From Thermoplasmata archaeon (GTDB taxonomy: Archaea > Thermoplasmatota > Thermoplasmata > Lutacidiplasmatales > UBA184), in assembly GCA_027306505.1 (NCBI GenBank), contig DAHUZP010000017.1, positions 47,244 to 111,243 on the forward strand: 64,000 nt of DNA, written 5' to 3'. The number at the start of each line of letters is the position of its first letter. Position 1 is the first letter of the stretch. The notes beneath the pieces were generated by a model that was given only the letters and a program-made list of their open reading frames with translations, was not told the DNA's origin and ran no database searches. Positions 6,973-50,620 of this stretch are shown piece by piece. The translations under genes were made by a program, and so were the position numbers.

Positions 6973-7013
6973 TAGAGCGGCCCGGGCCGAAGCGGGGAGG
7001 AGAGGCCCCACCG

Positions 7014-8063: not shown

Positions 8064-8247
8064 CACGTCTCCCAGCTAGCCCTCTTATGGGGGACCCCTC
8101 ATCCCCACCCGTGCGACCTGCGGACGCTTCCGCTGCACGCTCGATCGCCCGGACGCTCCCCCTCCTGCTGTTCTCGTGCGCCCCCCTTGGGGGACCTGCG
8201 CTTGGGGCGCCCCAAGCTCGAAGCTCGGGCGGGCCCCAGGGGGTCCC

Positions 8248-9916: not shown

Positions 9917-11254
9917 ATGATGCGAGAAGGAATGAAGGACGCGAACCAACTGGCGGCGAGCTGGCGAAAGGAAGAGAAGTGGCGGGGGATCTTCCGTCCG
10001 TACAAGGCGGAGGACGTGGTCCGGCTACGGGGGACGCTGCCGATCCGCTACACGCTCGCCGAGCTCGGGGCGGAGAAGCTCTGGCACCAGATCGCGACGC
10101 AGCCCTTCGTCCCGGCCCTGGGGGCCCAGACGGGGAACCAGGCGGTCCAGATGGTCCAGGCGGGCCTCCCGGCGATCTACGTGAGCGGCTGGCAGGTCGC
10201 GGCCGACAACAACGAGGCGGACGAGACCTACCCCGACCAGAGCCTCTACCCCTCCGACAGCGTCCCACATCTGGTCCGTCGGATCAACAACGCCTTCAAG
10301 CGCCAGGACGAGCGCAAGCACGCCCTCACCACGGAGCCGATCGATTGGTTCGCCCCGATCGTCGCGGACGCCGAGGCGGGCTTCGGGGGGCCCCTCAACG
10401 CCTTCGAGGTCATGAAGGACATGATCGAGGCGGGCGCCGCCGGGGTGCACCTGGAGGACCAGCTCTCCAACGCGAAGAAGTGCGGCCACCTGGGCGGGAA
10501 GGTCCTGGTGCCGGCCCGGGAGTTCATCTGGAAGCTCACCGCCGCCCGCCTCGCGGCGGACGTGATGGACGTCCCCACCCTCCTCATCGCCCGGACCGAC
10601 GCGCTCAACGCGCGCATCGTGACCAACGACGTGGACCCGGTGGACCAACCCTTCCTCAACGGGAAGCGGACCTACGAGGGCTACTACGAGTACAAGGGCG
10701 GCATCGAGTGCGCGATTGCCCGCGGCATCGCCTACGCCCCGTTCGCGGACATGGTCTGGTTCGAGACCTCCTCGCCCGACCCGGAGGAGGCCCGCACCTT
10801 CGCCCAGGCGCTCCACGCGAAGTTCCCGGGGAAGCCTCTCGCCTACAACTGCTCCCCTTCCTTCCACTGGAAGAAGAAGCTCTCCGACGAGCAGATCTCG
10901 AGGTTCATGAGCGACCTCGGTGAGCTGGGCTACAAGTTCCAGTTCATCACCCTCGCCGGGTTCCACTCGCTCAACTACCACATCTTCGAGCTCGCCCGCG
11001 CCTACCGCTCCCAGGGCATGAGCGCCTACGCCAGGTTCCAGGAGCTCGAGTTCGCGACGGTCCCGCACGGCTACAAGGCGGTGGCCCACCAGGCGTTCGT
11101 CGGCACGGACTACTTCGACGAGGTGGCCCAGGTCATCTCCGGCGGGGAGGCCTCCACCCTCGCCATGGAGGGGTCCACCGAGCGCGAGCAGTTCACCACC
11201 CCGCGCACCAAGGCGGCCCCCGGGGGCAAGCCCAAGGTCGCCGCGGCGCGATAG
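9917..11254 (+). CDS. aceA: Isocitrate lyase
   Basis: [13 protein letters not shown] signature and full-length ICL similarity. 11 nt after the aceB stop. Confidence 0.9.
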
Positions 11255-12469: not shown

Positions 12470-12557
12470 GGCCTGCCCGTGGCGTTCCTCCGGGAACCCA
12501 TCCGGCCTTTCGCCCCAGGGTCAAATTCTTCCTATTAGAAATCGCGAGGCGACTTCA

Positions 12558-12574
12558 GGTTCCGTAACGGAACC
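12558..12574. promoter_or_regulatory. Inverted repeat GGTTCCG-TAA-CGGAACC upstream of the 12612 gene
   Basis: Perfect 7-bp arms with a 3-nt spacer in the AT-richer intergenic region, about 40 nt before the GGAGGGGG SD. Confidence 0.4.
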
Positions 12575-12611
12575 TTCTGTCTACGTACCTCCTTGGTTCC
12601 TTGGAGGGGGC

Positions 12612-13859
12612 ATGGAGCGAATCGGGGTCTTTTCCCAAACTCGGCCAGGCATCCGTACCCGGGAGTATGGAGCGAACGCGGAGCGCCAGGGTGACCGGCC
12701 CTGGACGTCCGTGGAGGCAGGGCTCTCGGCGAGCTTCCTCACCGACATGAGCGCGCCCCCGGCTCTCCTCCCTCCGCTGCGGACCCTCGTGCACCCCTGC
12801 ACCAGAGTTCCTTCCCCCGGTCCGGGCGGGCCCTCTCCCCGACCGACGTCCCTCCGAGCGCACTTCCTGGTACGGGAGACCCCTGGGGCCCGTCCGGTAC
12901 CAGCGTCCATCGAGCTGCCGATGGCCCTCCTCGACCCGGCCACCCGGCGTCTCCTCGGCCATTCCGTCCTGGAGACCCCCGGGGGAGTCCACCTTTTCCT
13001 GACCCTCCCGGATCGGTCGAACGGCATGCTCACGCCCACCGACCGCTCGCTTCGCTCCTTCACGACCCTGCCCCTGGAGCTCGCCTCCGATCGCCTGGTC
13101 CGCTTCCGGGCGCGCGAGGTCCTGCGGGAGGTGGCGCAGGCGCACCGGGTCGCCCACTTCGAGCTGGAGGAGCTCCGCTCGAGCGTCGTACGGGGCAACG
13201 AGGACTGGATCCAGGAGGCGCTCTTCACCCCCGTGCAGGTGCCCGAGGCTGCCCTCTTCTCCAGTCCGGTCGATGGGGAGATCTGGCGCACCCTCCAGGG
13301 GAGCTTCCCCCCCGCGACCCGGCTCGCGTTCACCGACGAGGTTCCCGGCCTCGTTCGCCGCTGGTGGCAGGTCGGGGACAGTCAGCTCGTCCGGACCACC
13401 CCGCATGGCTTCCGCGCGGACCTCGTGGAGGGCATGGTCCGGGGCCTCGCGGCCCGTTTCCAACGGACCGAGGGAGCCCTGGTCGCCTTCGAGGGGACGG
13501 AGGACCTGCTGAAGCTCCTTCCCCTGTCGGACCTCGAGCGGCTCATCCAGGGGGTCCGCGAGGCCGCGGAGGCCCACCACGGGCACGCCTGGATCTCCTG
13601 GGACCCTTCCTGGATGCCCCCGGAGGCCGGACGGGTCCTGGGGCGCGGGTTCTCCCCGATCGCCCCGGCGAACCGCGTAGCATGGACCCTGGACGGCGTC
13701 GGCGAGGATTCCCGCCTCGTCCCGGCCGTCATGGCCCTCCCGCGTCCGTCCTCCCGCTCCACCGCCACACCTTCGGGCCGCTCCTCGCAGGTGCCTACGC
13801 TCGGGGACTGGCTCCGCTCCTCCTCCCTTCCGTCGGTCGCGGAGCCCCTGCTCGCCTAG
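12612..13859 (+). CDS. Hypothetical protein
   Basis: 415-aa ORF from an ATG preceded by a strong SD (GGAGGGGG). No recognisable motifs. Confidence 0.5.
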   Translation: MERIGVFSQTRPGIRTREYGANAERQGDRPWTSVEAGLSASFLTDMSAPPALLPPLRTLVHPCTRVPSPGPGGPSPRPTSLRAHFLVRETPGARPVPASIELPMALLDPATRRLLGHSVLETPGGVHLFLTLPDRSNGMLTPTDRSLRSFTTLPLELASDRLVRFRAREVLREVAQAHRVAHFELEELRSSVVRGNEDWIQEALFTPVQVPEAALFSSPVDGEIWRTLQGSFPPATRLAFTDEVPGLVRRWWQVGDSQLVRTTPHGFRADLVEGMVRGLAARFQRTEGALVAFEGTEDLLKLLPLSDLERLIQGVREAAEAHHGHAWISWDPSWMPPEAGRVLGRGFSPIAPANRVAWTLDGVGEDSRLVPAVMALPRPSSRSTATPSGRSSQVPTLGDWLRSSSLPSVAEPLLA

Positions 13860-26610: not shown

Positions 26611-27746
26611 CCGTCGCCATCGCTTCCACCGGTCTCCTCAGGTTCGGCAAGCGTCCCGAGTGCCTCGAAGAGCTCCTCGCCGGGGCGGGACGAGAGGCGC
26701 TCCAGGGTGCCCCCGGGGGTGCGCGACCCGACGCGCTCATCGTCGCCAACATGGCCGCGGGCTCGCTCGCCCACACGGAGAGCCTCGCCCCGCGGATCGC
26801 GGACCTCTTGGGCCTCTCGGGAGTCCCGGCCTGGAGGGTCGAGTCCGCCTCGGCGACGGGAGCGGGGGGGTTCCAGCTGGGCGCCCATCTGGTCGCCTCG
26901 GGGGCCTTCGACCGGGTCCTCGTGGTCGCCGGGGAGAAGATGACCGCCCTTCCCACCGCCGCCACCACGACCGCGCTTTCCCGCTCCCTCTCTCCCCTCG
27001 AGGTGCGGCACGGGGGAACCATGCCGTCCATGGCCGCCCTGGTGAGCGGTCTCTACCTCTCGCGCTATCGACTCCCCATCGAGGAGATGGCCGAGGTCAC
27101 GGTCCGCAACCGCGCCAGTTCCTCCCGCAACCCCCGCGCCCAACTCACCGCTCTCGTGACCCGAGAGGAGGTGAACCATAGCCGAATGGTCTCCTCTCCG
27201 CTGCGGCTCCTCCACGTGAGCGCGATCAGCGACGGAGCGGGGGCGGTCCTGCTGACCCGACCGCGGTCGAAGGACGAGGTCGTGGTCCTGGGCATGGGGC
27301 AGTCGACGGAGGTGCTGGACGTCGCAGCCCGGCCGATGGAGCCTCCGGGGTTCCGTTCCACCCGTCGGGCGGCGAGGGCCGCCTACGACCAGGCCGGGGT
27401 CGGCCGCAAGGAGGTCCGCGTCGCCGAGGTGCACGACGCCTTCGCGCCGTTCCAGTTGATCGACCTGGAGGACCTCGGCTTCTGCGGACCGGGCGAAGGT
27501 CTCGAGTGGACGAAGGAGGGCCGGGGGGACCCGAACGGCGTGCTCCCGATCAACCCCTCCGGAGGGCTCCTCGGACGAGGACATCCCGTGGGGGCCTCAG
27601 GGCTCGCCCAGATCATCGAGATCGACCGGCAGCTCCGTGGCAGTGCGGGTCCGATGCAGGCGGGAGCGCCCACGGTGGGCCTCGCCCAGTCGGTGGGCGG
27701 CCTCGGCTCGCACAACTTCGTGAGCATCCTGGGGAGGAGGACTTGA
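26607..27746 (+). CDS. Thiolase-like protein (archaeal acetyl-CoA acetyltransferase, SCP-x type)
   Basis: Thiolase-fold similarity throughout (...VANMAAG..., ...HVSAISDGAGAVLL..., ...NPSGGLLGRGHPVGASG...). The ATG overlaps the Hjc stop (ATGA). Confidence 0.85.
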   Translation: MTVAIASTGLLRFGKRPECLEELLAGAGREALQGAPGGARPDALIVANMAAGSLAHTESLAPRIADLLGLSGVPAWRVESASATGAGGFQLGAHLVASGAFDRVLVVAGEKMTALPTAATTTALSRSLSPLEVRHGGTMPSMAALVSGLYLSRYRLPIEEMAEVTVRNRASSSRNPRAQLTALVTREEVNHSRMVSSPLRLLHVSAISDGAGAVLLTRPRSKDEVVVLGMGQSTEVLDVAARPMEPPGFRSTRRAARAAYDQAGVGRKEVRVAEVHDAFAPFQLIDLEDLGFCGPGEGLEWTKEGRGDPNGVLPINPSGGLLGRGHPVGASGLAQIIEIDRQLRGSAGPMQAGAPTVGLAQSVGGLGSHNFVSILGRRT

Positions 27747-35718: not shown

Positions 35719-35855
35719 CGCCATTTAAGCGTGGTGGCGCCAGCGATCCCTCACCTTCCGCCGGCCGTCCACCCCGGCAGGAAACGAGCGAGGCCGCCGC
35801 CCGGCCCGGGTGCACTTATCTACCCACGGCCATCGGGCCGGCCGAGGGCGTGAAC

Positions 35856-36821
35856 ATGATCTACGTTCGGAAGGCCGGGGTCGTTGGTGCGGGGACCATG
35901 GGGGCTGCCATCGCCGAGGTGCTGGCCTTCAACGAGGTCAACGTCGTGCTCAAGGAGGTCAACGAGGAGCTCCTGGCGAAGGGCATGGCCCGGGTCAAGG
36001 GGATCGTGGACGAGCTCGTCGCCTTCCACGAGGGCCGGGCGGACAAGGAGATCGCCCGCATCGAGGAGATGGGGCTCAAGCTCAACGAGGAGCAGAAGGG
36101 CGCCATACGCCAGAAGCTCAAGCCCAAGGTCGACCGCAAGCGAGGGGACGCGATCATCGCCCGGGTGAAGGGCACCACCAGTTGGGACGACTTCAAGGAC
36201 GTCGACCTCGTGGTCGAGGCGGCCTTCGAGAAGGAGTCCGTCAAGAAGGAGGTCTTCGCGGCGCTCGACCGCAGCCTTCCCGACCACGCGATCATCGCCT
36301 CCAACACCTCTTCGCTCTCGATCACCCAGCTCGCGAAGGGACTGAAGCACTGCGGGAACACGCTCATCGCCCACTTCTTCAACCCTCCCTACACGCTGCC
36401 CTTGGTCGAGATCGTCGCGGGCGTGGACACCCGCGAGGACGTGGTCAGCGACGTGATGGAGTTCTTCCAGGGGCTGCGCAACCACCGGTTCCCGATGGTG
36501 CCCATCCGCGTGAAGGAGGTCCCCGGCTTCCTCGTGAACCGCCTGCTCATCCCGATGCTCAACGAGGCCTGCTTCGCCCTCGAGGAGGGCGTCGCGAGCG
36601 CCCGGGACATGGACATCGCGCTCAAGGCCGGGGCCGGGAACCCCATGGGTCCCCTGGAGCTCGCCGACATGATCGGGCTCGACGTCTGCCTCGACGTCGC
36701 GGAGATCCTGCACCGGGAGTACGGCGACCCCAAGTACCGGCCCGCGATCGCGCTCAAGAGGCTGGTCGCGGCGGGTCACCTCGGCCGCAAGACCGGCCGC
36801 GGCTTCTACGAGTACACCTGA
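35856..36821 (+). CDS. 3-hydroxyacyl-CoA (3-hydroxybutyryl-CoA) dehydrogenase
   Basis: Rossmann GVVGAGTMGAAIA. ...NTSSLSI..., ...HFFNPP... and C-terminal ...GRKTGRGFYEY typical of HBD/FadB. SD GAGGGCG upstream. Confidence 0.85.
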   Translation: MIYVRKAGVVGAGTMGAAIAEVLAFNEVNVVLKEVNEELLAKGMARVKGIVDELVAFHEGRADKEIARIEEMGLKLNEEQKGAIRQKLKPKVDRKRGDAIIARVKGTTSWDDFKDVDLVVEAAFEKESVKKEVFAALDRSLPDHAIIASNTSSLSITQLAKGLKHCGNTLIAHFFNPPYTLPLVEIVAGVDTREDVVSDVMEFFQGLRNHRFPMVPIRVKEVPGFLVNRLLIPMLNEACFALEEGVASARDMDIALKAGAGNPMGPLELADMIGLDVCLDVAEILHREYGDPKYRPAIALKRLVAAGHLGRKTGRGFYEYT

Positions 36822-39900: not shown

Positions 39901-40591
39901 TCGAGCCCGGGTGGGAGGTGAAGACGGCGGCGGGACTCCCGGGGAGGGAGGCGATGTGCATCGAGCCCACCACGACGGTGGGGCCATAGTCCGCCCATCC
40001 GGCGGTCTCGGTCAGGTTCGACGTGACCGCGGACCCGATGATGTGGACGGTACCGTCGAGATAGGTGGTGCCGGCCGATAGCGTGCCGTTGAGGTGGACG
40101 CTCCCGTTGATCGCCGTGGACGGGGGAGAGGTCGAACCATGGATCCATGGGACCTTGGACGTGGGAGCGCTCACGGTCCCGGCGAGGGTGGTCCTGACCG
40201 GGGCCGGAGCGCTGCCTACGGTGGGCAGAGCCCCGGGAGGCGGCCCTCCCGTCCTCATCGAGGGTGGGAGGGTGGTCGAGGAGGCTACGGTGCCGGACGA
40301 GGTCGCGAGAGCGCCCGTCGCGCCGTGCGAGGTCAGCAGCAGAGCGCTCGCGCTGCTCAAGAGCAGAAGGGCGACCACGACCGACCGGATCTGTGCTCCT
40401 GACAAGTCCAAGGCCCGTCGCCGCTCTCGCGGTCTTCGACTCGATTCTCCGCTCCGTAATGAGGGTTGGCTCGGGCGACAACGCCCCCTCCACCTCGAAG
40501 CCGGACGGTCCGAGGGGGGGGCGTGACGAGAATCGTAATGTCTGCTTTTCGACCGACAGGTATATACTGTTTGTCTGACAAGTGTCAGCAC
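36926..40591 (-). CDS. Giant (about 1220 aa) beta-helix/adhesin-like surface protein with C-terminal TM segments
   Basis: Signal-like VVVALLLLSSASALLL. Long G/T/S/N-rich repetitive body (GT..VT.G, TISG... repeats). Two C-terminal hydrophobic helices. No in-frame ATG near the N-terminus, so a GTG/TTG start is likely. Confidence 0.65.
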   Translation of the reverse strand: MLTLVRQTVYTCRSKSRHYDSRHAPPSDRPASRWRGRCRPSQPSLRSGESSRRPRERRRALDLSGAQIRSVVVALLLLSSASALLLTSHGATGALATSSGTVASSTTLPPSMRTGGPPPGALPTVGSAPAPVRTTLAGTVSAPTSKVPWIHGSTSPPSTAINGSVHLNGTLSAGTTYLDGTVHIIGSAVTSNLTETAGWADYGPTVVVGSMHIASLPGSPAAVFTSHPGSNLWVSPSPLNTTALNILQGNIQLGDPANGQTFLMTTTGVNITIQARQAGGFYSYGGGANINVGNASQILNYANSSGPISIQASILGVPTTINVAVGQVYVSAFCIVGLGCIAVPVTSITWPAGAHFSILGSTTTSGQGMTATMPDTRLTIAIPPSAGVNLSMDPDLGSPQLIVSPGASYPALVATLGRVTVSHGEDLEAAVTVEGTFSAEASASNGGTFYNDGGLTIVGEMDSAGEQVFNHKLQLGPDIHIVSAPGHGVVTSGYTTIDSDVTIDGSTNASGDIAIEGTLTQNATLIHIEGNLSLNGSMTASGGVGTDGTTAFLGNVSSSGDISLPHAFMDGTFLLHDGSFVGVGSTLLQGTSTARGWTWVNASTYSVTGSSWLNGTVDVNRSITVQGAAELLTAPGGSLNLNATVLMGVVNGPTGPSWTSRVQGSVFVQGASFTNGTSSFNGTTVSFPTGLKVVGVVEARGNVSVLGVTIFTGAVTSSGLAQFPGMSLLGTFGLSSSGGSVNASGTSGVAGNVTLTGILTVDQGIFSEVGTSSIVGDLYMTGTVVVTGDSTLSTSPGSTLSLVGDINLANAAHVLGNVNTSGNVTIQGSATLTSSQVTISGALAASGMVYSRGTVQLSGTADFNGPVYTQGRTDLPGLDVAGNYTLDWGQFLLRGSIALTGFTVSHGTIVANSTGYYVDGSSRIVGHTVASGSASVWGASSTVGYVTLGKGATLAGFMEVNGGMSVGGLGLSGTIVLPNDTATFPGGANITGTIWQRGLLTSESGAVRFYGRSIVNGTVVSSSSPSLQGPVIAEVLGGSLALTLGVEFFAFIAGLLLLLAIAGIELLRIGWKHRTPFTPAQREAVRPLRWEPTLSASFLGAGALVGALGGYGLGSYLLDPSHMSSAGLVSPIYALSSVLLLLGALLWVHHRLRYRRARRHADTKGPVARAPEEPSSPGAGASSTTSSSARPGPSSQASSLWAPSGPVGADDDGRSGPPSPP

Positions 40592-41363: not shown

Positions 41364-42671
41364 ATGAGCGTTCCAGCGGACCCCGGGACGATCCCCTGCC
41401 CCCACTGCGGGCGACCGATCCGCCTGACCGACGCCCTTCTCCACCCGATGGAGGAACGCGTACGGGCACGTGTCACGGAGGAATTGGCCGAGCGGGAGAA
41501 GGAACGTCTCGCAGAGCTCCTCCGCGAGCGCAAGAAACTGGAGGTGCGCGAGGCCGAGGTCCGGCACCAGGAGGAGGAGCTCCTCTCCAAGGTCGAGTCG
41601 CAGGTCCGGGAGCGGCTGCCCGGGCTACGGGCGGCCGCGCGTCAACAGCTCGAGGAGGATCGGAAGGTCGAGATGGAGGCCCTCCTCGCCCAGTTGCAGC
41701 TCGCGAAGGACCATCTCGCGACCTCCCAGAAGGAGGAGCTGAACCTGCGCCAGCGCACCGCGGCGCTGGAGCAAGAGAAACGGGAGCTCGACGTCCTCAT
41801 CGCCCGGCAGGTCGCGGAGGAGAGAGGTAAGCTCCAGAGCGAGCACACCCTCGAGCTTCGGCAGAAGGAAGAGGTCCTGGAGTCGCTCCGGCGCGAGATC
41901 TCCGACCTCAAGCAGCGCTCCGAGCAGGGATCCCAGCAGCTCCAGGGGGAGGTCCAGGAGCTCGAGCTCGAGGACATGCTCCGGGAGACCTTCCCGAACG
42001 ACGGGTTCGACCCGGTCCCCAAGGGGAAGGAGGGCGCGGACGTCCTCCAGATCGTCCGCCACGCCCCTGGCCACCACTTCGGGAAGATCCTGTGGGAGTC
42101 GAAGCGGACCAAGGAGTGGTCGAAGGACTGGGTCTCGAAGGTGAAGAAGGACCAGAGCGACGTCGTAGCGGACATCGCGGTCATCGTGACCCGGGCCATG
42201 CCCGAGGACGTCCCCACCTTCGGCGACCACGCGGGCGTGGTCGTGACGAGCTTCCGTTACGTCGTCCCCCTCGCGGCCCTCCTCCGTTCGAAGGTCGTCG
42301 ACCTCTCCAAGGCGAGGCAGGCGAACGTCGGCCGGTCCGACAAGAAGGAGATGCTCTACTCGTACGTGACAGGGAACGAGTTCCTGAACGCCTTCCGCAA
42401 CGCGGTGGAGGCCAGCGCGGAGGTGATCACAGAGCTCCAATCCGAACGGATGGCGATGGCCAAGCGCTGGAAGCGCCGGCAGAAGCTCATCGAGCGAAAC
42501 CTCCAGGCGATCGCGGAGGTCTACGGCAGCGTGCAGGGGCTGGTGGGCGCCTCCCTACCTGAGATCCCCGCCCTGAACCTGGAGCCCATGGACGGGTCGG
42601 TGCAGCTCTCCCTCCCCGACGGGGAGGAAGAGGACGAGCCTGCCGAGAAGGGGTCCGACGCACGCGACTAG
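41364..42671 (+). CDS. DUF2130-like coiled-coil protein with C-terminal PD-(D/E)xK-like nuclease motif
   Basis: About 230 aa of heptad-rich E/R/L/Q sequence, then ...GADVLQIV...GKILWESKRTKEW..KDWVSKVKKDQ..., which matches the conserved DUF2130 core (D..E-S-K). Confidence 0.65.
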   Translation: MSVPADPGTIPCPHCGRPIRLTDALLHPMEERVRARVTEELAEREKERLAELLRERKKLEVREAEVRHQEEELLSKVESQVRERLPGLRAAARQQLEEDRKVEMEALLAQLQLAKDHLATSQKEELNLRQRTAALEQEKRELDVLIARQVAEERGKLQSEHTLELRQKEEVLESLRREISDLKQRSEQGSQQLQGEVQELELEDMLRETFPNDGFDPVPKGKEGADVLQIVRHAPGHHFGKILWESKRTKEWSKDWVSKVKKDQSDVVADIAVIVTRAMPEDVPTFGDHAGVVVTSFRYVVPLAALLRSKVVDLSKARQANVGRSDKKEMLYSYVTGNEFLNAFRNAVEASAEVITELQSERMAMAKRWKRRQKLIERNLQAIAEVYGSVQGLVGASLPEIPALNLEPMDGSVQLSLPDGEEEDEPAEKGSDARD

Positions 42672-42702
42672 CCGGTGAGGCCCGCGCCCCATCCCCGTCA
42701 TT

Positions 42703-42726
42703 TTGTCGCCGGCGACAACATATAAG
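42703..42726 (+). promoter_or_regulatory. Perfect 16-bp palindrome TTGTCGCCGGCGACAA abutting a CATATAAG TATA box
   Basis: Located 36-60 nt upstream of the SCP2 gene ATG, in an operator-like position over BRE/TATA. GGGGAGG SD follows. Confidence 0.5.
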
Positions 42727-42761
42727 CAGGGCTCATCCTGGGGAGGCCCGCGAGGACGACC

Positions 42762-43166
42762 ATGGTGAAGTTCCCCAGCCAAGAGTGGATCGAACAGTTC
42801 AAGGAGAAGCTCAACCAGAACGCCGCCTACGAGGACGCGGCGAAGACCTGGGAAGGGGACTTCATCTTCCTGGTCGAGGCGGAAGGCGCCCTCCCCTCCT
42901 CCGTCGCCCTCTACATGGACCTCTTCCACGGCAAGTGCCGGGACGCGAAGATGCTCTCCTCCCCCGAGGAGAAGAGCGCCGCCTACACCTACCAGGGCCC
43001 CTACGGGAACTGGCGCAAGCTCATCAACAAGGAGATCGACCCGATCCAGGGGATGATGACGGGGAAGTTCAAGCTCAAGGGGAACATGATGAAGATCATG
43101 CGCTACACCCGCGCGGCGAAGGAGCTCATCAACACCGCGTCCACGATCCCGACGGAGTTCCCGTAG
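42762..43166 (+). CDS. SCP2 (sterol carrier protein 2) domain protein
   Basis: ...GKFKLKGNMMKIM... is the SCP2 signature. 134 aa. Confidence 0.7.
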   Translation: MVKFPSQEWIEQFKEKLNQNAAYEDAAKTWEGDFIFLVEAEGALPSSVALYMDLFHGKCRDAKMLSSPEEKSAAYTYQGPYGNWRKLINKEIDPIQGMMTGKFKLKGNMMKIMRYTRAAKELINTASTIPTEFP

Positions 43167-43248
43167 GGAGCTCGGGCCCCTCCCGTCCCCCGCCGCTCGA
43201 TCGACCCCCCCAGCGCAAGGAAGGAACGACGGAGGGCGCCGAGCTTAG

Positions 43249-44409
43249 ATGTGGTTCTTCACCTCACCGAAGATCGTCTTCGGCTCAGGCGCAATCGAGT
43301 TCCTGGCCTCGTTGCCCACCAAGAAGGCCCTCATCGTCTGCGACAAGTTCCTCTCCGAGAAGCGGGCCTACCAGCCCGTCGCGGAGCAGCTCACCAAGTC
43401 CGGGGCCCAGGTGAAGGTCTTCGGCGAGGTCGAGCCCGAGCCTCACATCGCGACGGTGGAGGCCGGGGTGAAACTCGCGAGGGAGTTCGAGCCCGACATG
43501 GTGGTCGGTTTCGGCGGAGGCAGCGCGATGGACATGGCGAAGGCCATCTACGCGCTCTACGAGCGACCCGACCTCACCATCTACGACCTCACCCCCATCG
43601 TGGAGCTCCACCTGGGACAGAAGGCCCGCCTGGTCCAGGTGCCTACGACCAGCGGGACCGGCAGCGAGACGACCTGGGCCACCATCATCACCGAGGGGGA
43701 GGGTGGGCGCAAGCTCGAGCTCGCCCATCGCGACCTGGTCGCGGACTGGGCGGTGCTGGACCCGCTCTTCCCGGGCTCCATGCCTCCCCGCCTCACCGCG
43801 GACACCGGGGCGGACGCCCTCGCCCACTCCATCGAGTCGATCTCCTCGGAGTGGTCGAACCCCTTCTCTGACGCCCTCGGGGTGAAGGCCGTGGACACCA
43901 TCTTCCGGTTCCTGCCGAAGGCGGTGAAGGGCGACCCGGTCCCCTCGGAGGTACGGGAGGAGCTCCACCTCGCGGCGGCCATGGCGGGGCTCTCCTTCGG
44001 GAACGCCCAGGTGGGCATCGGCCACGCGCTGGGCCACGCTCTGGGGTCGGTCTTCCACGTCCCGCACGGACGGACCGTGGGGCTCTTCCTGCCCTACCAC
44101 ATCGAGTACAACTTCAACGCCGCGCGCCCGAAGCTCGCCCGGCTCGGACCCGTCCTGGGCGAGTCCACCGTGCAGTCCGGCCGTGACCTCGCCGGGAAGG
44201 TCCGCTCGCTCTGGGACCAGATCGGTATGGCCCGGACCATTCCCGAGGCGGCGAAGATCACCGAGAAGGAGTTTGAGGAGAAGCTGCCCGAGCTCGTCGC
44301 CCGAGCGGACTCCTCCACCTGCGTCATCTCCAACGCCCGCGTCCCCAGCTCGAAGGAGCTGGAGCGGATCTTCCGGGCGGCCTGGAGCGGGAGCCCGATC
44401 GACTTCTGA
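43249..44409 (+). CDS. Iron-containing (group III) alcohol dehydrogenase
   Basis: ...GFGGGSAMD.AKA..., ...GTGSE.T..A.I..., ...H..E... metal-binding pattern. 386 aa. Confidence 0.85.
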   Translation: MWFFTSPKIVFGSGAIEFLASLPTKKALIVCDKFLSEKRAYQPVAEQLTKSGAQVKVFGEVEPEPHIATVEAGVKLAREFEPDMVVGFGGGSAMDMAKAIYALYERPDLTIYDLTPIVELHLGQKARLVQVPTTSGTGSETTWATIITEGEGGRKLELAHRDLVADWAVLDPLFPGSMPPRLTADTGADALAHSIESISSEWSNPFSDALGVKAVDTIFRFLPKAVKGDPVPSEVREELHLAAAMAGLSFGNAQVGIGHALGHALGSVFHVPHGRTVGLFLPYHIEYNFNAARPKLARLGPVLGESTVQSGRDLAGKVRSLWDQIGMARTIPEAAKITEKEFEEKLPELVARADSSTCVISNARVPSSKELERIFRAAWSGSPIDF

Positions 44410-44485
44410 ACCGGGCGACCGGTCCGGCCCGAGCGAGCGAACCAGCGCGACGAACGAACAAGCAGAACCGAGGGGAGAAGAGAGG

Positions 44486-46111
44486 ATGGCCGCACCGGAG
44501 AGCGCCTTGAGCGAGAGCATGGGAACGAACGCGCCCCGGACGTGGAAGGCCTTCATCGGCGGTGAGTGGCGCGACGCATCCAACGGCGCGACGACCACCC
44601 TTCGCGACCCGGCGACCGGCGAGCTCCTCGGAACGGTCCCCCAGTGCACGAAGGAGGACGCGAAGGCCGCGGTGGACGCGGCGAGGGAGGCCTTCGACAA
44701 GGGCCCCTGGCCCGAGACCAGGCCGAAGGACCGGGCTGAGGTCCTTCTCAAGGTCGCGGAGCTCATCACCACGCGGGCGGAGATGTTCGCCCTCCTGGAG
44801 ACCCGCAACGCCGGGAAGCCCATCCGGCAGAGCACGTTCTTCGACCTGGGGCTCGCGGCCGAGCACATGCGCTACTTCTCCGAGCTCACGACCTCGATCC
44901 GCTGGCGCCAGAAGGTGGAACAGCCCGACTACGAAGGGAGCTACGGGGTCATCCGCAAGGAGCCGATGGGGGTCTGCGCGGGGATCACGCCGTGGAACCT
45001 ACCGCTCCTCATGGCGGTCTGGAAGGCGGGCCCGGCCCTCGCCGCGGGGAACACCTGCGTTCTGAAGCCCGCCTCGCTCACGCCCTGCACGACGATCGAG
45101 CTCGCCCGCCTGTTCGAGGAAGCGGGCCTCCCCAAGGGGGCCCTCTCGGTGGTCACCGGCTCCGGAGAGGAGGTGGGGAACGTCCTGCTCACCCATCCGG
45201 GGGTGGACAAGGTGAGCTTCACCGGCTCCACCGAGGTGGGCCGGACGGTCCTCGCGAAGAGCTCCTCCACGGTGAAGCGCACGACGATGGAGCTCGGCGG
45301 GAAGAGCGCGAACGTGATCCTTCCCGAGGCGGACCTGGACAAGGCGATCGACGGGTCGCTCTTCGGCATCTTCCTGCATGCGGGACAGCTCTGTGAGTCG
45401 GGGAGCCGCCTGCTCGTCCCGGCGAAGGAGCAGGAACGCATCGTCCAGAAGCTGGTCGAGAAGGCGCGGAGGATCCGCATCGGCCTGACCCAGGACTACA
45501 ACACCGACATGGGACCGGTCATCAGCGACGGCCAGCGGACCCGGATCGAGGGGTACATCCAGTACGGGATCGATCAGGGCGCGAAGCTCTCCTTCGGCGG
45601 TAACCGGCCGGACCGGCCGGAGCTCCGCAAGGGCTTCTTCCTTCGACCCACGATCTTCTCCGGCGTCACCCCTGACATGCGGATCGCTCAGGAGGAGATC
45701 TTCGGACCGGTGCTCACCGTCCTTCCCTACGACAATCTGGACCAGGCCGTGGAGATCGCGAACAGCACCATCTTCGGCCTCGCGGCGGCCGTGTGGTGCC
45801 GGAACGAGAAGAAGGCGGAGCGGGTCGCGGAGCGGCTCCGGGCCGGGACCGTGTGGATCAACGACTACCACCTGCTCACCTGCCACGCCCCTCGCGGAGG
45901 GTACAAGCAGTCCGGGATCGGTCGCGAGCTGGGAGAGCACGCGCTCGAGGACTACCTCGAGACGAAGCATCTCTTCTTCGGCCAGGACTCCCCGCTCATC
46001 CCCATCGCCCGTGGCCTCGTCGTGGCCCCCGCCCCCGAGGGGGGGCCCGGGAGCCCGACCAGCCCCTCCTCCCCCCCTTCCACGTCGGGGGAGGGCGGCG
46101 CGTCCAGTTAG
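44486..46111 (+). CDS. Aldehyde dehydrogenase (NAD(P)+)
   Basis: ...ELGGKSANVI... (catalytic Glu), ...GQLCESGSRLLV... (Cys), ...FTGSTEVGR.... Unusual S/P-rich C-terminal tail of about 25 aa. Confidence 0.9.
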   Translation: MAAPESALSESMGTNAPRTWKAFIGGEWRDASNGATTTLRDPATGELLGTVPQCTKEDAKAAVDAAREAFDKGPWPETRPKDRAEVLLKVAELITTRAEMFALLETRNAGKPIRQSTFFDLGLAAEHMRYFSELTTSIRWRQKVEQPDYEGSYGVIRKEPMGVCAGITPWNLPLLMAVWKAGPALAAGNTCVLKPASLTPCTTIELARLFEEAGLPKGALSVVTGSGEEVGNVLLTHPGVDKVSFTGSTEVGRTVLAKSSSTVKRTTMELGGKSANVILPEADLDKAIDGSLFGIFLHAGQLCESGSRLLVPAKEQERIVQKLVEKARRIRIGLTQDYNTDMGPVISDGQRTRIEGYIQYGIDQGAKLSFGGNRPDRPELRKGFFLRPTIFSGVTPDMRIAQEEIFGPVLTVLPYDNLDQAVEIANSTIFGLAAAVWCRNEKKAERVAERLRAGTVWINDYHLLTCHAPRGGYKQSGIGRELGEHALEDYLETKHLFFGQDSPLIPIARGLVVAPAPEGGPGSPTSPSSPPSTSGEGGASS

Positions 46112-46117
46112 GACCGC

Positions 46118-46615
46118 ATGGCGCGCATCGAGACCGAGGTCGTCATCCGGGCCCCGCTGGACCGGGTCTTCTGGTTCCTCGCGAACGGTGACCACGCTCC
46201 GGAGTGGTCGGTCTCGGTGAAGGCAGCGCACCACGAGACCCCGCCCCCGATCCGCGTCGGGAGCCGCCTCGCCGTGAAGGCGCAGGCCGGTCGGAGGGAG
46301 TACTCCTGGACCCAGGAGGTCACGCGCTGGGAGCTCCTCCGGGAGTTCGAGGACCGTCTCGTACCGGGCGAGGGGCCCTTCCGCTCCTTCCTGGACTGGG
46401 GAAAGTTCGAGCCGACCCCCGAGGGGGTACGGTTCACCTTCGGCCTCGACTACCATCTCCCCGGGGGCCCCCTGGGCTGGCTCATCGACCGCCTCCTCGT
46501 CGCACCGCGGGTGGAGCACGACCAGCACCTCTCGCTGCAGAAGGCGCGCTCCATGCTCGAAGGCGGCCAGGTCACGGACGAGATCGTCCCCAGGTGGGCA
46601 CGGGGGAAGGCGTGA
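46118..46615 (+). CDS. SRPBCC (START/polyketide-cyclase-like) ligand-binding protein
   Basis: MARIETEVVIRAPLDRVFWFLAN..W... is the typical N-terminus of this superfamily. 165 aa. Confidence 0.65.
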   Translation: MARIETEVVIRAPLDRVFWFLANGDHAPEWSVSVKAAHHETPPPIRVGSRLAVKAQAGRREYSWTQEVTRWELLREFEDRLVPGEGPFRSFLDWGKFEPTPEGVRFTFGLDYHLPGGPLGWLIDRLLVAPRVEHDQHLSLQKARSMLEGGQVTDEIVPRWARGKA

Positions 46616-48588
46616 GCGCCGCCGCTCCCTCGCCCGTCCCCGACGTGAACCCCCGCGACCGGGCGATCCTCGCCGCCGTCGCTCGCGGGCTCGTGCCCTC
46701 CGGAGGGCCCTTCGCCCCCGGCGCCGATGAGGTGGGCGTCGCCGACCTCATCCTCGCTATGGGCAAGGAGATGGACATGGTGAGCAGCGCGGTCGTGCGC
46801 GCGCTCGTCGCGAGCCTCGAGTTCGCCGCCGTCTTTCGCGGTCCGGGCCGGCGCCTTTCCTCGCTCCCTCCCTTGGAGGCGGAGCGGTTCCTCGCGGACG
46901 CGGTCCACCAAGGGAAGGTACGACCCATGGCGAGCTGGCTGCTCCGCCTCTTGGTGGAGGCCAACTACGTCTCCGCCCCCCCGGTCCGGGCCTACCTCTC
47001 GATCGACGACGAGCCGATGTACACGGAGCCTCCCGTGCCCCCCGCCCGGCCACCGGTGCCCACCCTCACCTACCCCTCCCTCAGCCCGGGCACGGAGCTC
47101 GACTGCGACGCATGCGTCATCGGGAGCGGGGCCGGCGGGGCGCCCGCGGCGGCCCTCCTCGCGGAGGCGGGATGGAAGGTCCTCGTGGTGGAGGAGGGGC
47201 CCGCGGTCTCGCGGCAGGACTTCCACGGCTCTGCGATCGGAAGGATCGGGCGCTACTACCGTTCCAACGGGATCTTCTTCACCATCGGCAAGCCCCTGGT
47301 CCAGATCTCCTACGCGAGCTCCGTCGGCGGGACGACGGTGTTCAACTCCGGCACCTGCTTCGAACCTCCCGCGTCGACGCTCGAGAAGTGGGCGAAGGAC
47401 TCCGGGGTCGCGGACCTGGGGCCGGAGGGTCTCGCGCCCTACCTCGCCCGCGTGAAGAAGTTCCTCCAGGTGGGGCCTTCCCGAGCCGACATCATCGGGG
47501 GCAACGGCGAGGCCCTACGGCTGGGCGCGGAGCGGCTGGGCGGGGGCCTCCGACACGGGGTGATCCCCCGCCCCGCCCCGGGCTGCCGCGGCATGGACCT
47601 CTGCGTGGTGGGTTGCCCCACCGATGCGAAGCGGTCGATGCAGATCTCCTACCTCCCTCGAGCCCTCGCCTCGGGGGCGCGGATCCTCTCCCGTGTCCGC
47701 GTGGACCGCGTGCGGGCCGGTCCCGGTGGTCCCGCGCGCTGGATCGTGCAGGGCGCCCTATTGGACCCGGTCACCCGCCGACCGGTGGGTCGGGTCCAGG
47801 TGCGCTGCCGCCACGTGGTCGTCGCGGCCGGCGCCCTCGCGACGCCCTACCTCTTGCCGGCGGTGGGTCCCCGCGCCTCCCGAGCCCACCAGGGCCGACA
47901 TCTCCGCGTGCACCCCTCCCTGGACGTGGCGGGGGACTTCCCGAGGGAGATCCGGGGCTGGCGCGGTGTGCTCCAGTCCTACTACGTGGACGACCATGAC
48001 CACGGCGTGCTGCTCGAAGCGACCTTCCACCCGCGGGGGCTGCTCTCGACCTCGGGGCTTACCCCCTACACGGGGGCCCGCTACAAGGAGTTCCTCGAGC
48101 GGCTCCCCCACCTCGCCCTCATCGGCGCGCTCATCATGGACCAGAGCGAGGGCCGCCTGGGGCCCTTCTTCGCCGGTCGGCCCTGGGTGTTCTACGACAT
48201 GCTCCCGGAGGACCTCCGCAAGGCCGGTCGGGCGATCGCGCTATCGGGCCGTCTGCTGTTCGCAGCAGGCGCTGAGCGCGTCTTCGTCCCTGTGCACGGG
48301 GGACGGGAGGTGAGACGCGTGGAGGACCTCGACGTGTTCGAGAACGAACCGATCGCCCCGGAGGCGTTGCACCTCCTCGCTTTCCACCCGCTGGGCACGG
48401 CGAGGATGGCCCGCGAGCCGGAGATCGGGGCGGTGGACCCGGACGGGACCGTCTGGGGCGCCCCCGGGCTTCATGTCTCGGACGCGAGCCTGCTCCCCGG
48501 GTCCCCGAGCGTCAATCCCCAGATCTCGATCATGGCGATCGCGGAACGGTGCGCGGAGCGCTGGGCGAAGCAGGGGGTCCGTGCATGA
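46612..48588 (+). CDS. GMC-family FAD oxidoreductase (long-chain alcohol oxidase/dehydrogenase-like)
   Basis: The GTG start overlaps the upstream stop (GTGA). About 150-aa N-terminal extension, then DACVIGSGAGGAPAAALLAEAGWKVLVVEEG. C-terminal ...FHPLGTARM... segment. Confidence 0.75.
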   Translation: MSAAAPSPVPDVNPRDRAILAAVARGLVPSGGPFAPGADEVGVADLILAMGKEMDMVSSAVVRALVASLEFAAVFRGPGRRLSSLPPLEAERFLADAVHQGKVRPMASWLLRLLVEANYVSAPPVRAYLSIDDEPMYTEPPVPPARPPVPTLTYPSLSPGTELDCDACVIGSGAGGAPAAALLAEAGWKVLVVEEGPAVSRQDFHGSAIGRIGRYYRSNGIFFTIGKPLVQISYASSVGGTTVFNSGTCFEPPASTLEKWAKDSGVADLGPEGLAPYLARVKKFLQVGPSRADIIGGNGEALRLGAERLGGGLRHGVIPRPAPGCRGMDLCVVGCPTDAKRSMQISYLPRALASGARILSRVRVDRVRAGPGGPARWIVQGALLDPVTRRPVGRVQVRCRHVVVAAGALATPYLLPAVGPRASRAHQGRHLRVHPSLDVAGDFPREIRGWRGVLQSYYVDDHDHGVLLEATFHPRGLLSTSGLTPYTGARYKEFLERLPHLALIGALIMDQSEGRLGPFFAGRPWVFYDMLPEDLRKAGRAIALSGRLLFAAGAERVFVPVHGGREVRRVEDLDVFENEPIAPEALHLLAFHPLGTARMAREPEIGAVDPDGTVWGAPGLHVSDASLLPGSPSVNPQISIMAIAERCAERWAKQGVRA

Positions 48589-49118
48589 ACGCAAGGACGG
48601 AGGGTCCCGCCCCCACGCCCCAGGCACCCGCCCCTTCCGGTCGCGGCCACCCGAGCGGACCTCGCTGCGCTTGGGCCTCGATCGCCCTCCTCATCCTCGC
48701 TCTAGTGCTCCTGGTCTTCGGGTTCTTCTATCTCTTGGAGCCCGGACCCTCGGTGTCCTCCATCAACTCCATCGCGACGACGCTCGGCCTGCACCTGCCG
48801 GCGACGCCCTCGAACCCCCCCGAGTTCCGGGGGTGGGTCGGGTTCACCTTCGCCTACATGATGGGAGCGACGGCCTGCGCGCTCATGGCCGCCCTCTCCC
48901 GGCCACCGGCACGCGACGCCTACCTCAACATCCTGATGCTGCTCAAGGGCACCTCGAGCCTCACCGGGCTCGGGCTCTTCCTCGCGCAGGCGGCCTACCC
49001 GTTCTACCTCGCGACCTTCCTGACCGACGGGCTCATCTTCCTCGGGGTGCTCCTAGTGCGCCTGCACCTCACCCGCTCCCACCCCCTTCCTTCTCTCCCA
49101 GAGGCGCATTCCGCGTGA
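48585..49118 (+). CDS. Small membrane protein (last gene of the operon)
   Basis: ATG overlaps the GMC stop (ATGA). 4 predicted TM helices. Confidence 0.5.
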   Translation: MNARTEGPAPTPQAPAPSGRGHPSGPRCAWASIALLILALVLLVFGFFYLLEPGPSVSSINSIATTLGLHLPATPSNPPEFRGWVGFTFAYMMGATACALMAALSRPPARDAYLNILMLLKGTSSLTGLGLFLAQAAYPFYLATFLTDGLIFLGVLLVRLHLTRSHPLPSLPEAHSA

Positions 49119-49191
49119 GCGCGGGACCGGCGGGGAAGGTCCCGAGAGGGAAGGTACGGCGACGCGACGAGCGCCCCTCGGACGGACCCGT

Positions 49192-49518
49192 TCAGGGCCA
49201 CTTCTCGATCTTGTGGACCGTCGCTTCGCCCAGACCCCGGTTCGGGAGGCCGCTGTGGCGCCAGGCGATCGCCCCATCCTCGAAAGCGATCACCGTGGGG
49301 ATCACCTCGATGTCGAAGGTGAGCGGGACGGGCTCGTAGAAGTCGTCCATCACGTACTCCGCGAGCCGGACCCCCTGGGGAGGGTTCACGCGGGTGTAGG
49401 CGGCCCGGAAGGCCTGGCAGAACGTGCACCAGGGGCCTTGGAAGAGCACGATCCAGCGCCCGGGGAGCTTCAGCCGCGGCCCCTCGAACTCCTGGTCGCT
49501 GACCCGTGTGACCTGCAC
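49192..49518 (-). CDS. Thioredoxin-fold protein
   Basis: GPWCTFCQAF motif in a 108-aa ORF. Confidence 0.55.
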   Translation of the reverse strand: MQVTRVSDQEFEGPRLKLPGRWIVLFQGPWCTFCQAFRAAYTRVNPPQGVRLAEYVMDDFYEPVPLTFDIEVIPTVIAFEDGAIAWRHSGLPNRGLGEATVHKIEKWP

Positions 49519-49672: not shown

Positions 49673-50620
49673 ATGAGGGTGCGAGGAGCCCACCTCGACG
49701 ACGTGAGCGCGATCTGCCGGGCGCACCTCTCCGAGGTCCCCCGGTGGACCCGTTCCCGGGAGAACGGGGAGGTGGAGGAAGTGCGCTACGAGGAGCTCAC
49801 GCTGTTCCAACGGTGGCTGCACGGCGGACCGCACATGAGCCCGGAGCTCTGTGCCGTGCATCTCAACCACCTCCTTCTCGCCGGACAGACCGCCTTGGTC
49901 GCCGAGGACGAGGAGGGCCGGGTCGTGGGGGAGATCGAGGTCATCGAGGGGGAGGTCCGTGACCTCGGCCGGACCGCGCACGTGAGCGTCCTCAACGTCG
50001 AGGCCCCCGCCCGGAGGAAGGGAGCGGGCCGGGCGCTGGTCGAAGAGGTCGAGGCCAGGGCCCGGGAGAACGGCTGTGCGTGGCTCACGACGCGTCCGGC
50101 GGACGACGCCGTCCCGTTCTACGAGAGGCTGGGGATCTCGAGGAGGCTCCGCCGCCAGGTCGAGGTCGTGATCGACCTTGAGCGGCCTCTGCCCGAGCCA
50201 CCGGAGGCGAGCGAGATCGTCTCACCGCTCGACGAGTACCGTCCCCTTTCGACCCGTCACATGCTCCTGGGTTGCACGCAGAGCCCGTTCCAGAACTGGC
50301 AGCTGCGTCGCTGGACCCTGGCGGGGATCGACGAGGATCTCAGCGCCGAGGAGGGCTACCTCCCCGACCTCGACATGTACTACCGGCTGGAGCGGGCGAT
50401 CTCGAGCCCTCCGGCGCGGCGAGAGGCGGGCGCCTGCGCGTGGGTCGGTGACCGGAGCCTGGGCCCCCTTGCGCTCCGGTGGCTCGCGGGGAAGGCCTCG
50501 GGGACCGGCTACGCCGCTCTCCGCACCGCGATCGCCGAGGAGGAAGAAGCCTGGTTGGAGGGGTTCCAGGTCACCGAACGCTCCCCGTTCCTTCTCCTCG
50601 GCAAGGCCTTGACCACGTGA
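49673..50620 (+). CDS. GNAT-family N-acetyltransferase with C-terminal extension
   Basis: ...RRKGAGRALVEEVEARARENGCAWL... acetyl-CoA binding motif A. 315 aa, with a ~140-aa C-terminal domain of unknown function. Confidence 0.6.
   Translation: MRVRGAHLDDVSAICRAHLSEVPRWTRSRENGEVEEVRYEELTLFQRWLHGGPHMSPELCAVHLNHLLLAGQTALVAEDEEGRVVGEIEVIEGEVRDLGRTAHVSVLNVEAPARRKGAGRALVEEVEARARENGCAWLTTRPADDAVPFYERLGISRRLRRQVEVVIDLERPLPEPPEASEIVSPLDEYRPLSTRHMLLGCTQSPFQNWQLRRWTLAGIDEDLSAEEGYLPDLDMYYRLERAISSPPARREAGACAWVGDRSLGPLALRWLAGKASGTGYAALRTAIAEEEEAWLEGFQVTERSPFLLLGKALTT

Follow-up and report, generated by a model that had tools for sequence, protein, structure and literature searches.

Lipid-alcohol catabolism is poorly known in archaea, and we describe here a six-gene cluster in which lipid-binding proteins are encoded beside alcohol- and aldehyde-oxidizing enzymes. 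The cluster lies in a 64,000-nt stretch of a Thermoplasmata archaeon genome (GTDB order Lutacidiplasmatales, UBA184; GenBank assembly GCA_027306505.1, contig DAHUZP010000017.1, positions 47,244 to 111,243 of the forward strand), hereafter referred to as the window, whose coordinates are used throughout. The six genes run co-directionally on the plus strand from 42762 to 49118 and encode, in order, an SCP2 protein, an iron-containing alcohol dehydrogenase (Fe-ADH), an aldehyde dehydrogenase (ALDH), a START-like SRPBCC protein, a flavoprotein of the GMC family, and a protein with four predicted transmembrane segments (4-TM). The stretch has a G+C content of 70%, and third-position G+C guided the choice of genes. 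Independent gene calls on contig DAHVCF010000091.1 (GCA_027315705.1) give the same six lengths of 134, 386, 541, 165, 658, and 177 amino acids, and the product of gene 6 is identical in sequence to the protein on that contig. Pfam scans also identify window proteins of archaeal character (thermopsin, a Pelota/eRF1-like protein, ComA, and Hjc). The five family names given in the original prediction, which had been made from the letters of the DNA, are all borne out by Pfam, while the sixth protein belongs to no family.

The first three genes are separated by gaps of 82 and 76 nt, and the SRPBCC gene begins 6 nt past the ALDH stop codon. The remaining junctions are overlaps: the GTG start of the GMC gene overlaps the SRPBCC stop codon in GTGA, and the ATG of gene 6 overlaps the GMC stop codon in ATGA. 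Four-nucleotide overlaps had been proposed for the last three junctions, and thus hold at two of them (SRPBCC/GMC and GMC/4-TM), the ALDH/SRPBCC junction being a gap. The ALDH ends in a low-complexity tail rich in Pro, Ser, and Gly (APAPEGGPGSPTSPSSPPSTSGEGGASS; 45998-46108, residues ~505-541) that lies outside the Pfam domain. No Rfam family matches at E <= 0.1 between 40000 and 50000.

Table 1 Features of the cluster and of distant genes in the window.
Feature	Position	Strand	Description
Perfect 16-bp palindrome TTGTCGCCGGCGACAA	42703..42718	.	Ends one base before ATATAAG (42720-42726), 43 nt before ATG
TATA-like box ATATAAGC	42720..42727	+	Likely sole promoter element of the six genes
GAGGA, Shine-Dalgarno-like	42752..42756	+	5 nt before SCP2 start codon, in a short conserved leader
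Gene 1, SCP2	42762-43166	+	134 aa; stand-alone lipid-binding protein, module A; Pfam SCP2 4.7e-11
Gene 2, Fe-ADH	43249-44409	+	386 aa; iron-containing (group III) alcohol dehydrogenase, module A; Pfam Fe-ADH 2.5e-45, ADH_Fe_C 2.3e-39
Gene 3, ALDH	44486-46111	+	541 aa; NAD(P)-dependent aldehyde dehydrogenase, module A; Pfam Aldedh 9.9e-170
Gene 4, SRPBCC	46118-46615	+	165 aa; START-like hydrophobic-ligand binder, module B; Pfam Polyketide_cyc2 8.7e-13
Gene 5, GMC flavoprotein	46612-48588	+	658 aa, GTG start; module B; GMC_oxred_N (PF00732) 2.7e-30, GMC_oxred_C (PF05199) 5.9e-18
N-terminal helical extension of GMC protein	46612..47091	+	~160 residues before GSGAGG; probably a fused small-subunit-like domain
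Cys motif C325-R-G-M-D-L-C331-V-V-G-C335-P-T-D-A-K of GMC protein	47584..47631	+	Predicted iron-sulfur site
Gene 6, 4-TM protein	48585-49118	+	177 aa, ATG start; module B; no Pfam or NCBIfam family
Malate synthase	8248-9906		
Isocitrate lyase	9932-11254		
Thiolase	26751-27746		
3-Hydroxyacyl-CoA dehydrogenase	35850-36821		

The TATA-like box lies ~40 nt ahead of the SCP2 ATG. The sequence AACATATAA at 42717-42725 is the only 8-mer with at least seven A/T positions within 42400-49400; such 8-mers form 11 clusters in the 64 kb, ten of them intergenic. The internal gaps of the cluster contain GGAGG-like sites and no TATA sequence. In three relatives (loci L001, L005, and L150) the box is kept as CATATAA, CGTATAA, or TCTTTAAG, again ~40 nt before the ATG, and the leader GCGAGGA..CCATGGTGAAGTTCCC is retained as well. 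Because the sole AT-rich box precedes SCP2 and the order of all six genes is kept in the same three relatives, whose GMC proteins are 68-77% identical to that of the window, co-transcription is plausible, and a single transcript for the six genes is the simplest reading of these sequences.

A search with the GMC protein returns relatives at 96, 77, 77, 71, and 68% identity, after which identity drops to ~51%. At that level (L002-L004) only the SRPBCC, GMC, and 4-TM genes remain together, joined by 4-nt overlaps and preceded by a different upstream gene; in one such locus a 108-aa protein with a WCRFC motif is encoded directly 5' of SRPBCC (L002:9214-9540, +). The SCP2 protein is 91-93% identical in L001 and L005, and a metagenome search with it yielded 63 loci. 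In 33 of these, an Fe-ADH gene lies no more than 250 nt downstream of SCP2 on the same strand; five of the 33 add an ALDH gene, and none of the 63 contains the GMC gene. The cluster therefore joins two separately conserved modules, SCP2/Fe-ADH/ALDH (module A) and SRPBCC/GMC/4-TM (module B), and the low-complexity ALDH tail is located exactly where they meet.

The GMC protein carries an invariant FAD motif, GSGAGG, at residues 171-176 and scores above the cut-offs of both PF00732 and PF05199, placing it in the GMC superfamily. Its predicted catalytic pair, His592 (in HPLGTARM) and Asn635 (in VNPQ), is invariant in an alignment of 30 family members and lies within a block that aligns with the C-terminal active-site region of choline oxidase and of 6A2U_B, the alpha subunit of an FAD glucose dehydrogenase (FAD-GDH), for which a His/Asn pair has been described (PMC6719666). 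Homologs number 1835. Of the 120 that were listed, all are named just “GMC family oxidoreductase” or “choline dehydrogenase-like flavoprotein”, and the bacterial ones of full length share 35-43% identity with the window protein. When solved structures are searched with the single sequence, the match is confined to the last ~65 residues. A profile of the 30 members searched against the Protein Data Bank (PDB) gives 6A2U_B as the best match (3e-32), with the large subunit of fructose dehydrogenase, 7W2J_A, also scoring high (7.6e-25).

The profile alignment pairs Cys325, Cys331, and Cys335 of the window protein with Cys212, Cys218, and Cys222 of 6A2U_B. In 6A2U these cysteines ligate a 3Fe-4S cluster that receives electrons from the FAD (PMC6719666; also PMC5979317). 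All three cysteines, together with Pro336, are invariant in the 30 family members, and in the homolog P0207 this position is occupied by four cysteines in a ferredoxin-type arrangement, CxxCxxCxxxC. Fer4 families give weak matches in 4-5 family members. From these correspondences we infer that the GMC protein contains an iron-sulfur cluster. The cysteine triad and the presence of a membrane partner favor a dehydrogenase over an oxidase, and an enzyme that passes electrons to this partner is thus more likely, on the sequences at hand, than one that uses O2. An AlphaFold model of the protein has a pLDDT of 85.9, with lower confidence at the cysteine loop. Foldseek ranks cholesterol oxidase, FAD-GDH alpha, choline oxidase, and fructose dehydrogenase at the top with similar scores, so that structure alone names no substrate.

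The protein does carry an N-terminal extension, which the original prediction likened to that of long-chain alcohol oxidases; it comprises ~160 residues before the FAD motif. The extension is helical and conserved. In the window protein it matches PF13618 (gluconate 2-dehydrogenase subunit 3) only weakly (E 0.051). Of 30 relatives, 14 match this family, with a best value of 2.8e-7, and precomputed Pfam annotation lists PF13618 for many homologs. We take this family to be that of the small “hitch-hiker” subunits of FAD dehydrogenase complexes. Comparison of the extension with solved small subunits gave only noise at the level of sequence profiles and nothing at E <= 0.001 with Foldseek, and a literature search for PF13618-GMC fusions returned nothing relevant. 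By eye, the N-terminus (MSAAAPSPVPDVNPRDRAIL) has neither a twin-arginine motif nor a hydrophobic signal core; the absence of a twin-arginine translocation (Tat) signal indicates that the enzyme is probably cytoplasmic. There is no cytochrome c gene in the cluster or in its relatives. The segment GGTTVF aligns with GGTTWH of 6A2U and places Phe at the position of His105, to which FAD is covalently attached in 6A2U; the alignment program scored this stretch as unreliable, while its GGTT anchor is exact.

The closest known systems are accordingly the gamma-alpha-beta FAD-GDH of Burkholderia cepacia (6A2U) and the fructose dehydrogenase of Gluconobacter (7W2J). Both share with the window protein a GMC-fold catalytic unit, the 3Fe-4S cysteine positions, the His/Asn pair, a helical accessory element, in the window protein possibly of PF13618 type, and, probably, association with a membrane component. 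In the window, however, this element forms the N-terminus of the catalytic chain and lacks a Tat signal, a 4-TM protein stands in place of the multi-heme cytochrome c subunit, and the neighboring genes encode lipid binders rather than enzymes of sugar metabolism; overall identity is only ~18%. Since the Tat signal, the cytochrome c, and, with the reservation on alignment given above, the covalent FAD are all missing, we regard the enzyme as of the FAD-GDH kind but not as a member of those complexes. Judged from its sequence, it is better described as a dehydrogenase akin to FAD-GDH, with a predicted iron-sulfur site and docking at the membrane, that is unusual in being cytoplasmic and in lacking a cytochrome.

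Eukaryotic long-chain alcohol oxidases (FAO; EC 1.1.3.20) share the GMC fold, an extension of comparable length, and a presumed hydrophobic alcohol substrate, but the iron-sulfur triad and membrane partner of the window enzyme argue against O2 as acceptor. A literature search for bacterial FAO homologs returned nothing relevant, and the sole archaeal long-chain alcohol oxidase found in the literature belongs to the VAO family rather than to GMC (PMC9299179). Streptomyces cholesterol oxidase (1B4V, 3B3R) gives the top Foldseek matches (E ~2e-21, TM 0.69 on the target) at ~20% identity, and its NCBIfam model is the best match of the window enzyme, albeit a very weak one at 64.9 bits where the cut-off is 850. 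It acts on a lipid and has a His/Asn-type active site but is a secreted oxidase without an iron-sulfur cluster, N-terminal domain, or membrane partner. Assignment to choline dehydrogenase, which would have undercut the original prediction, was considered and rejected: the BetA models TIGR01810 (34.1 bits against 732.1) and PRK02106 (41.1 against 605) score far below their curated cut-offs and match only the C-terminal 60-90 residues.

AlkJ and AlkH of the Pseudomonas putida alkane pathway are a membrane-associated GMC alcohol dehydrogenase and an aldehyde dehydrogenase. The likeness to the cluster lies in a GMC flavoprotein that would feed the respiratory chain, is encoded with an aldehyde dehydrogenase, and would act on hydrophobic alcohols. 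We know of no N-terminal extension, iron-sulfur motif, or dedicated membrane subunit in AlkJ, and the Pfam and tblastn searches of the window revealed no alkane hydroxylase, rubredoxin, or acyl-CoA synthetase.

The gene 6 protein contains four hydrophobic segments. The positions conserved in it are a proline following helix 1 and the motifs W..AYM (helix 2), K..SS (helix 3), and YL..F..DG (helix 4). With an HMM derived from five sequences, homologs are detected directly beside the GMC gene in ten Solirubrobacterales and two Spirochaetota loci. Homologs are also detected in L148 and, within ~2 kb of the GMC gene, in L007, L022, and L045, so that the linkage of GMC and 4-TM genes extends over archaea and at least 16 bacterial loci. 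In P0207, one polypeptide comprises a 4-TM domain, a linker, and a GMC enzyme that shares 40% identity with the window protein. Given these bacterial and archaeal neighborhoods and the P0207 fusion, the sequences indicate that the pairing is ancient and that it is probably physical. These observations fit a 4-TM protein that would serve as membrane anchor or quinone-side subunit in place of a cytochrome c subunit. The 4-TM family has 137 cluster representatives in an exhaustive search of 1.84 billion representatives. Separately, six proteins of 524-880 aa (P0131, P0138, P0142, P0150, P0157, and P0165) carry the 4-TM domain fused to DUF362, and the domain may be a membrane module of general use to soluble redox proteins.

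The SRPBCC protein is 60-75% identical in L001-L005 and L150, where its gene always lies directly before the GMC gene. HMMs made from the archaeal proteins found neither SRPBCC nor SCP2 beside the bacterial GMC homologs. The contexts of the latter include lipid-related genes: one bacterial GMC/4-TM pair lies in a beta-oxidation cluster among genes for ChsH2-like, thiolase, hydratase, acyl-CoA dehydrogenase, ligase, and thioesterase proteins, and elsewhere an SCP2-hydrolase fusion, a thiolase-like protein, or a lipid kinase is encoded nearby. Among the bacterial loci L006-L084, GntR/FCD regulators are the commonest co-directional neighbors (13 of 84 open reading frames (ORFs), six with a FadR C-terminal domain). 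Many actinobacterial loci, mostly from Streptomyces, have an ORF of ~460 aa without Pfam match that ends at the GMC start and may be real or spurious in G+C-rich DNA.

In module A, the Fe-ADH is closest among solved structures to the ADH domains of AdhE (3zdr, 4.1e-72), and the protein falls below every NCBIfam equivalog cut-off. The ALDH finds its best solved match (2.9e-136) in 9ldl_C, an 886-aa chain named “aldehyde dehydrogenase family protein”, which also matches the Fe-ADH (1.5e-44). Residues 4-483 of that chain match the ALDH and residues 530-870 the Fe-ADH, so the two activities also occur fused. On other archaeal contigs, the SCP2-Fe-ADH pair lies beside two acyl-CoA synthetase genes in L126 and beside an acyl-CoA synthetase and an aldehyde:ferredoxin oxidoreductase gene in L093. 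In both L126 and L127, at 6963-8408, SCP2 is present as a tandem of three genes, whose products share 42-44% identity with the window SCP2 and which stand between two acyl-CoA synthetase genes and an Fe-ADH gene. A literature search for SCP2 together with alcohol dehydrogenase in archaea returned nothing relevant. Module A thus has the look of a pathway, equipped with a lipid carrier, in which an alcohol is oxidized by way of the aldehyde to the acid and which elsewhere leads on to acyl-CoA. The alcohol-aldehyde-acid logic originally proposed for the cluster thus gains comparative support from the SCP2-Fe-ADH loci, with the onward acyl-CoA synthetase step seen only beside the pair in other genomes. 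The SCP2/Fe-ADH pair, sometimes beside acyl-CoA synthetases, may serve as a testable marker for hydrophobic-alcohol oxidation in uncultured archaea.

Taken together, these observations point to a single operon of two modules that converts a lipid-like alcohol to the acid and contains an iron-sulfur, membrane-docked GMC dehydrogenase, a reading to which we assign a probability of roughly 0.5. Here, SCP2 would present a poorly soluble substrate to the NAD(P)+-dependent enzymes of module A, which would oxidize the alcohol to the aldehyde and then to the carboxylic acid. Module B would form a cytoplasmic dehydrogenase docked at the membrane, in which the conserved His/Asn pair would promote oxidation of the substrate hydroxyl at the FAD and electrons would pass from the FAD to an iron-sulfur cluster on Cys325/Cys331/Cys335, on to the 4-TM partner, and probably into the quinone pool. 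The fused N-terminal domain would stand in for the small subunit, and the 4-TM protein for the cytochrome c subunit, of the FAD glucose and fructose dehydrogenase complexes, and the SRPBCC protein would deliver either a hydrophobic substrate or quinone. The operon as a whole would most likely carry a hydrophobic, lipid-like alcohol to the acid by respiratory and NAD-linked routes. Gene order, protein families, separate conservation of the modules, the cysteine triad, and the GMC/4-TM linkage with its natural fusion are seen directly in the sequences; cofactor content, electron path, substrate class, and co-transcription are the parts of this scheme that we infer. A shared lipid-like substrate fits the finding that each module brings its own hydrophobic-ligand binder, and oxidation of a hydrophobic alcohol by the operon is plausible.

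Several observations weigh against this assignment. Those relatives of the GMC protein that have been solved use sugars, choline, or sterols as substrates, and those of the Fe-ADH use short alcohols. The presence of two alcohol-oxidizing enzymes in one operon is unexplained; they may provide alternative NAD-linked and respiratory routes, as has been suggested for pristanol in Alcanivorax (PMC6850023), or attack different hydroxyl groups. The 4-TM protein has no conserved His or Cys and therefore no obvious redox cofactor, and most sampled bacterial GMC homologs have varied contexts and no detected 4-TM neighbor. As the four six-gene examples all come from one lineage, the linkage of the two modules could reflect simple inheritance. 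In addition, tblastn finds no match in the 64 kb to acyl-CoA synthetase, acyl-CoA dehydrogenase, enoyl-CoA hydratase, or aldehyde:ferredoxin oxidoreductase, Pfam scans of ~50 window proteins reveal no alkane hydroxylase (AlkB, CYP153, LadA, or AlmA), and the thiolase, 3-hydroxyacyl-CoA dehydrogenase, and glyoxylate-shunt genes of the window lie 6 to 33 kb from the cluster.

A wider proposal, which we hold only tentatively and consider less probable than the operon assignment itself, is that module B represents an undescribed type of respiratory dehydrogenase found in Thermoplasmata and several bacterial phyla, sometimes as one chain. Such an enzyme would combine a cytoplasmic GMC protein, a fused small-subunit-like domain, an iron-sulfur cluster, and a 4-TM dock. 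It would pass electrons to the quinone pool from lipid-like alcohols, possibly isoprenoid ones derived from archaeal ether lipids, and would in this lineage have been joined to SCP2/Fe-ADH/ALDH, which would complete the route from alcohol to acid. If so, the iron-sulfur GMC dehydrogenases, so far periplasmic sugar enzymes linked to cytochrome c, would gain a widespread form that is cytoplasmic and docked at the membrane, and a function would be at hand for a 4-TM family that matches nothing in Pfam or NCBIfam. Iron-sulfur enzymes of the FAD-GDH class can pass electrons directly to electrodes, and such direct electron transfer is of practical interest for biosensors.

The alternative that fares best, although we consider it unlikely, is that the two modules are adjacent or co-transcribed but functionally unrelated, module A acting on short alcohols or diols and module B on another, possibly hydrophilic compound, with the SRPBCC protein as a quinone chaperone. 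Each module does occur without the other, the Fe-ADH is closest to AdhE-type ethanol dehydrogenase domains and the GMC profile to glucose and fructose dehydrogenase subunits, and the contexts of the bacterial GMC genes vary. What speaks for a common task is the tight 6-nt junction with no AT-rich box before SRPBCC, the retention of the fused arrangement down to 68% GMC identity, the hydrophobic-ligand binder in each module, and the acyl-CoA synthetases that accompany module A elsewhere.

The original prediction itself, that the operon takes long-chain alcohols, alkanes, or isoprenoid lipids to acyl-CoA under a repressor bound to a 16-bp palindrome, now appears improbable as a whole. Part of it agrees with our results, in that lipid-binding proteins flank both oxidizing enzymes, homologs occur in lipid-related contexts, the GMC fold and an N-terminal extension are present, and Alcanivorax induces a GMC enzyme on pristane (PMC6850023). 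The oxidation of a hydrophobic alcohol stands as plausible, but neither an alkane hydroxylase nor an acyl-CoA synthetase is found in the 64 kb, and the invariant cysteine triad and the translationally coupled membrane partner point to a dehydrogenase. The thiolase, 3-hydroxyacyl-CoA dehydrogenase, and glyoxylate-shunt enzymes cited as nearby context are indeed encoded in the window, at a distance, while the supposed DUF35 protein beside the thiolase has no Pfam match at E <= 0.01 and shows only a weak zinc-ribbon hint.

The palindrome on which the proposed repressor would act, TTGTCGCCGGCGACAA, is an exact dyad that abuts the TATA box and overlaps the expected BRE position just 5' of it. This placement is its sole unusual feature. 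The window contains three perfect palindromes with arms of at least 8 nt against 2.85 expected under a first-order Markov model, and at least one such palindrome occurs in 95% of simulated windows. In L001 and in L005, 11 of the 16 positions are identical and the dyad symmetry is lost, a level equal to the 72% mean identity of the same intergenic alignment, and the L150 promoter has unrelated sequence at this position. Nor does the palindrome recur: no related second copy with up to three mismatches exists in the window, and its core is found in none of 153 fetched loci. There is likewise no regulator gene adjacent to the cluster in the window or in any relative. The operator claim thus looks ordinary; a functional operator is doubtful, and the palindrome is most likely a lineage-specific chance dyad rather than a conserved operator.

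The ends of the palindrome do recur in another arrangement, and this recurrence still speaks for an operator. The pattern TTGTC-N(0-10)-GACAA has two matches in the window against 0.11 expected, one formed by the ends of the palindrome and the other by a dyad 2.1 kb upstream at 40571-40581, but the half-sites are spaced by 6 nt in the palindrome and by 1 nt in the dyad. The upstream site comprises the overlapping dyads TTGTCtGACAA (40571-40581) and CTGACAagTGTCAG (40575-40588), placed between a TATA box (TATATAC, 40561-40567) and the start of a 53-aa ORF without Pfam match (ATG at 40594 to TGA at 40755, +). About 60 nt around these dyads are 100% identical in three genomes, with diverged flanks (L001:4060-4269; L005 ~3780-3990). 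The dyad at 40571-40581 has the look of an operator conserved in the lineage, and TTGTCGCCGGCGACAA does not resemble it in this respect; the sites at 40571-40588 are much the better operator candidate.

Conversion of choline to glycine betaine, by a BetA- or GbsB-like step followed by betaine-aldehyde dehydrogenase, draws on the same three superfamilies (GMC, Fe-ADH, and ALDH in BetA/BetB and GbsB/GbsA) and could appeal to the best NCBIfam match and several top solved relatives of the ALDH, which are betaine-aldehyde dehydrogenases, to a weak GbsB match of the Fe-ADH, and to the place of BetA within the GMC family, but it is highly improbable, as none of the three enzymes reaches the curated cut-offs (34-41 bits against 605-732 for BetA, 194.6 against 550 for GbsB, and 526.9 against 668.6 for the ALDH with TIGR01804), the lipid-binding SCP2 and SRPBCC proteins and the iron-sulfur motif are foreign to that pathway and would have no role in it, and no choline or betaine transporter is encoded in the cluster or its relatives.

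The 3' boundary of the cluster is variable. In the window, a convergent thioredoxin-fold gene (49192-49518, -) adjoins module B and ends the unit, and a GNAT gene lies beyond it (49673-50620). Small convergent genes occupy the place of the thioredoxin gene in L001 and L150. A GNAT acetyltransferase gene (7641-8144) overlaps the 4-TM gene by 4 nt in L150, and a cupin gene (12553-12948) follows the cluster in L001. Farther away, a gene of the phage integrase family (2112-2942, -) near the start of the window raises the possibility of a mobile element there. The longest perfect palindrome of the window, the 18-bp GCTTGGGGCGCCCCAAGC at 8200-8217, lies ~30 nt before the malate synthase start, where it may form a hairpin terminating the gene upstream or be a site belonging to the promoter of the glyoxylate-shunt genes.

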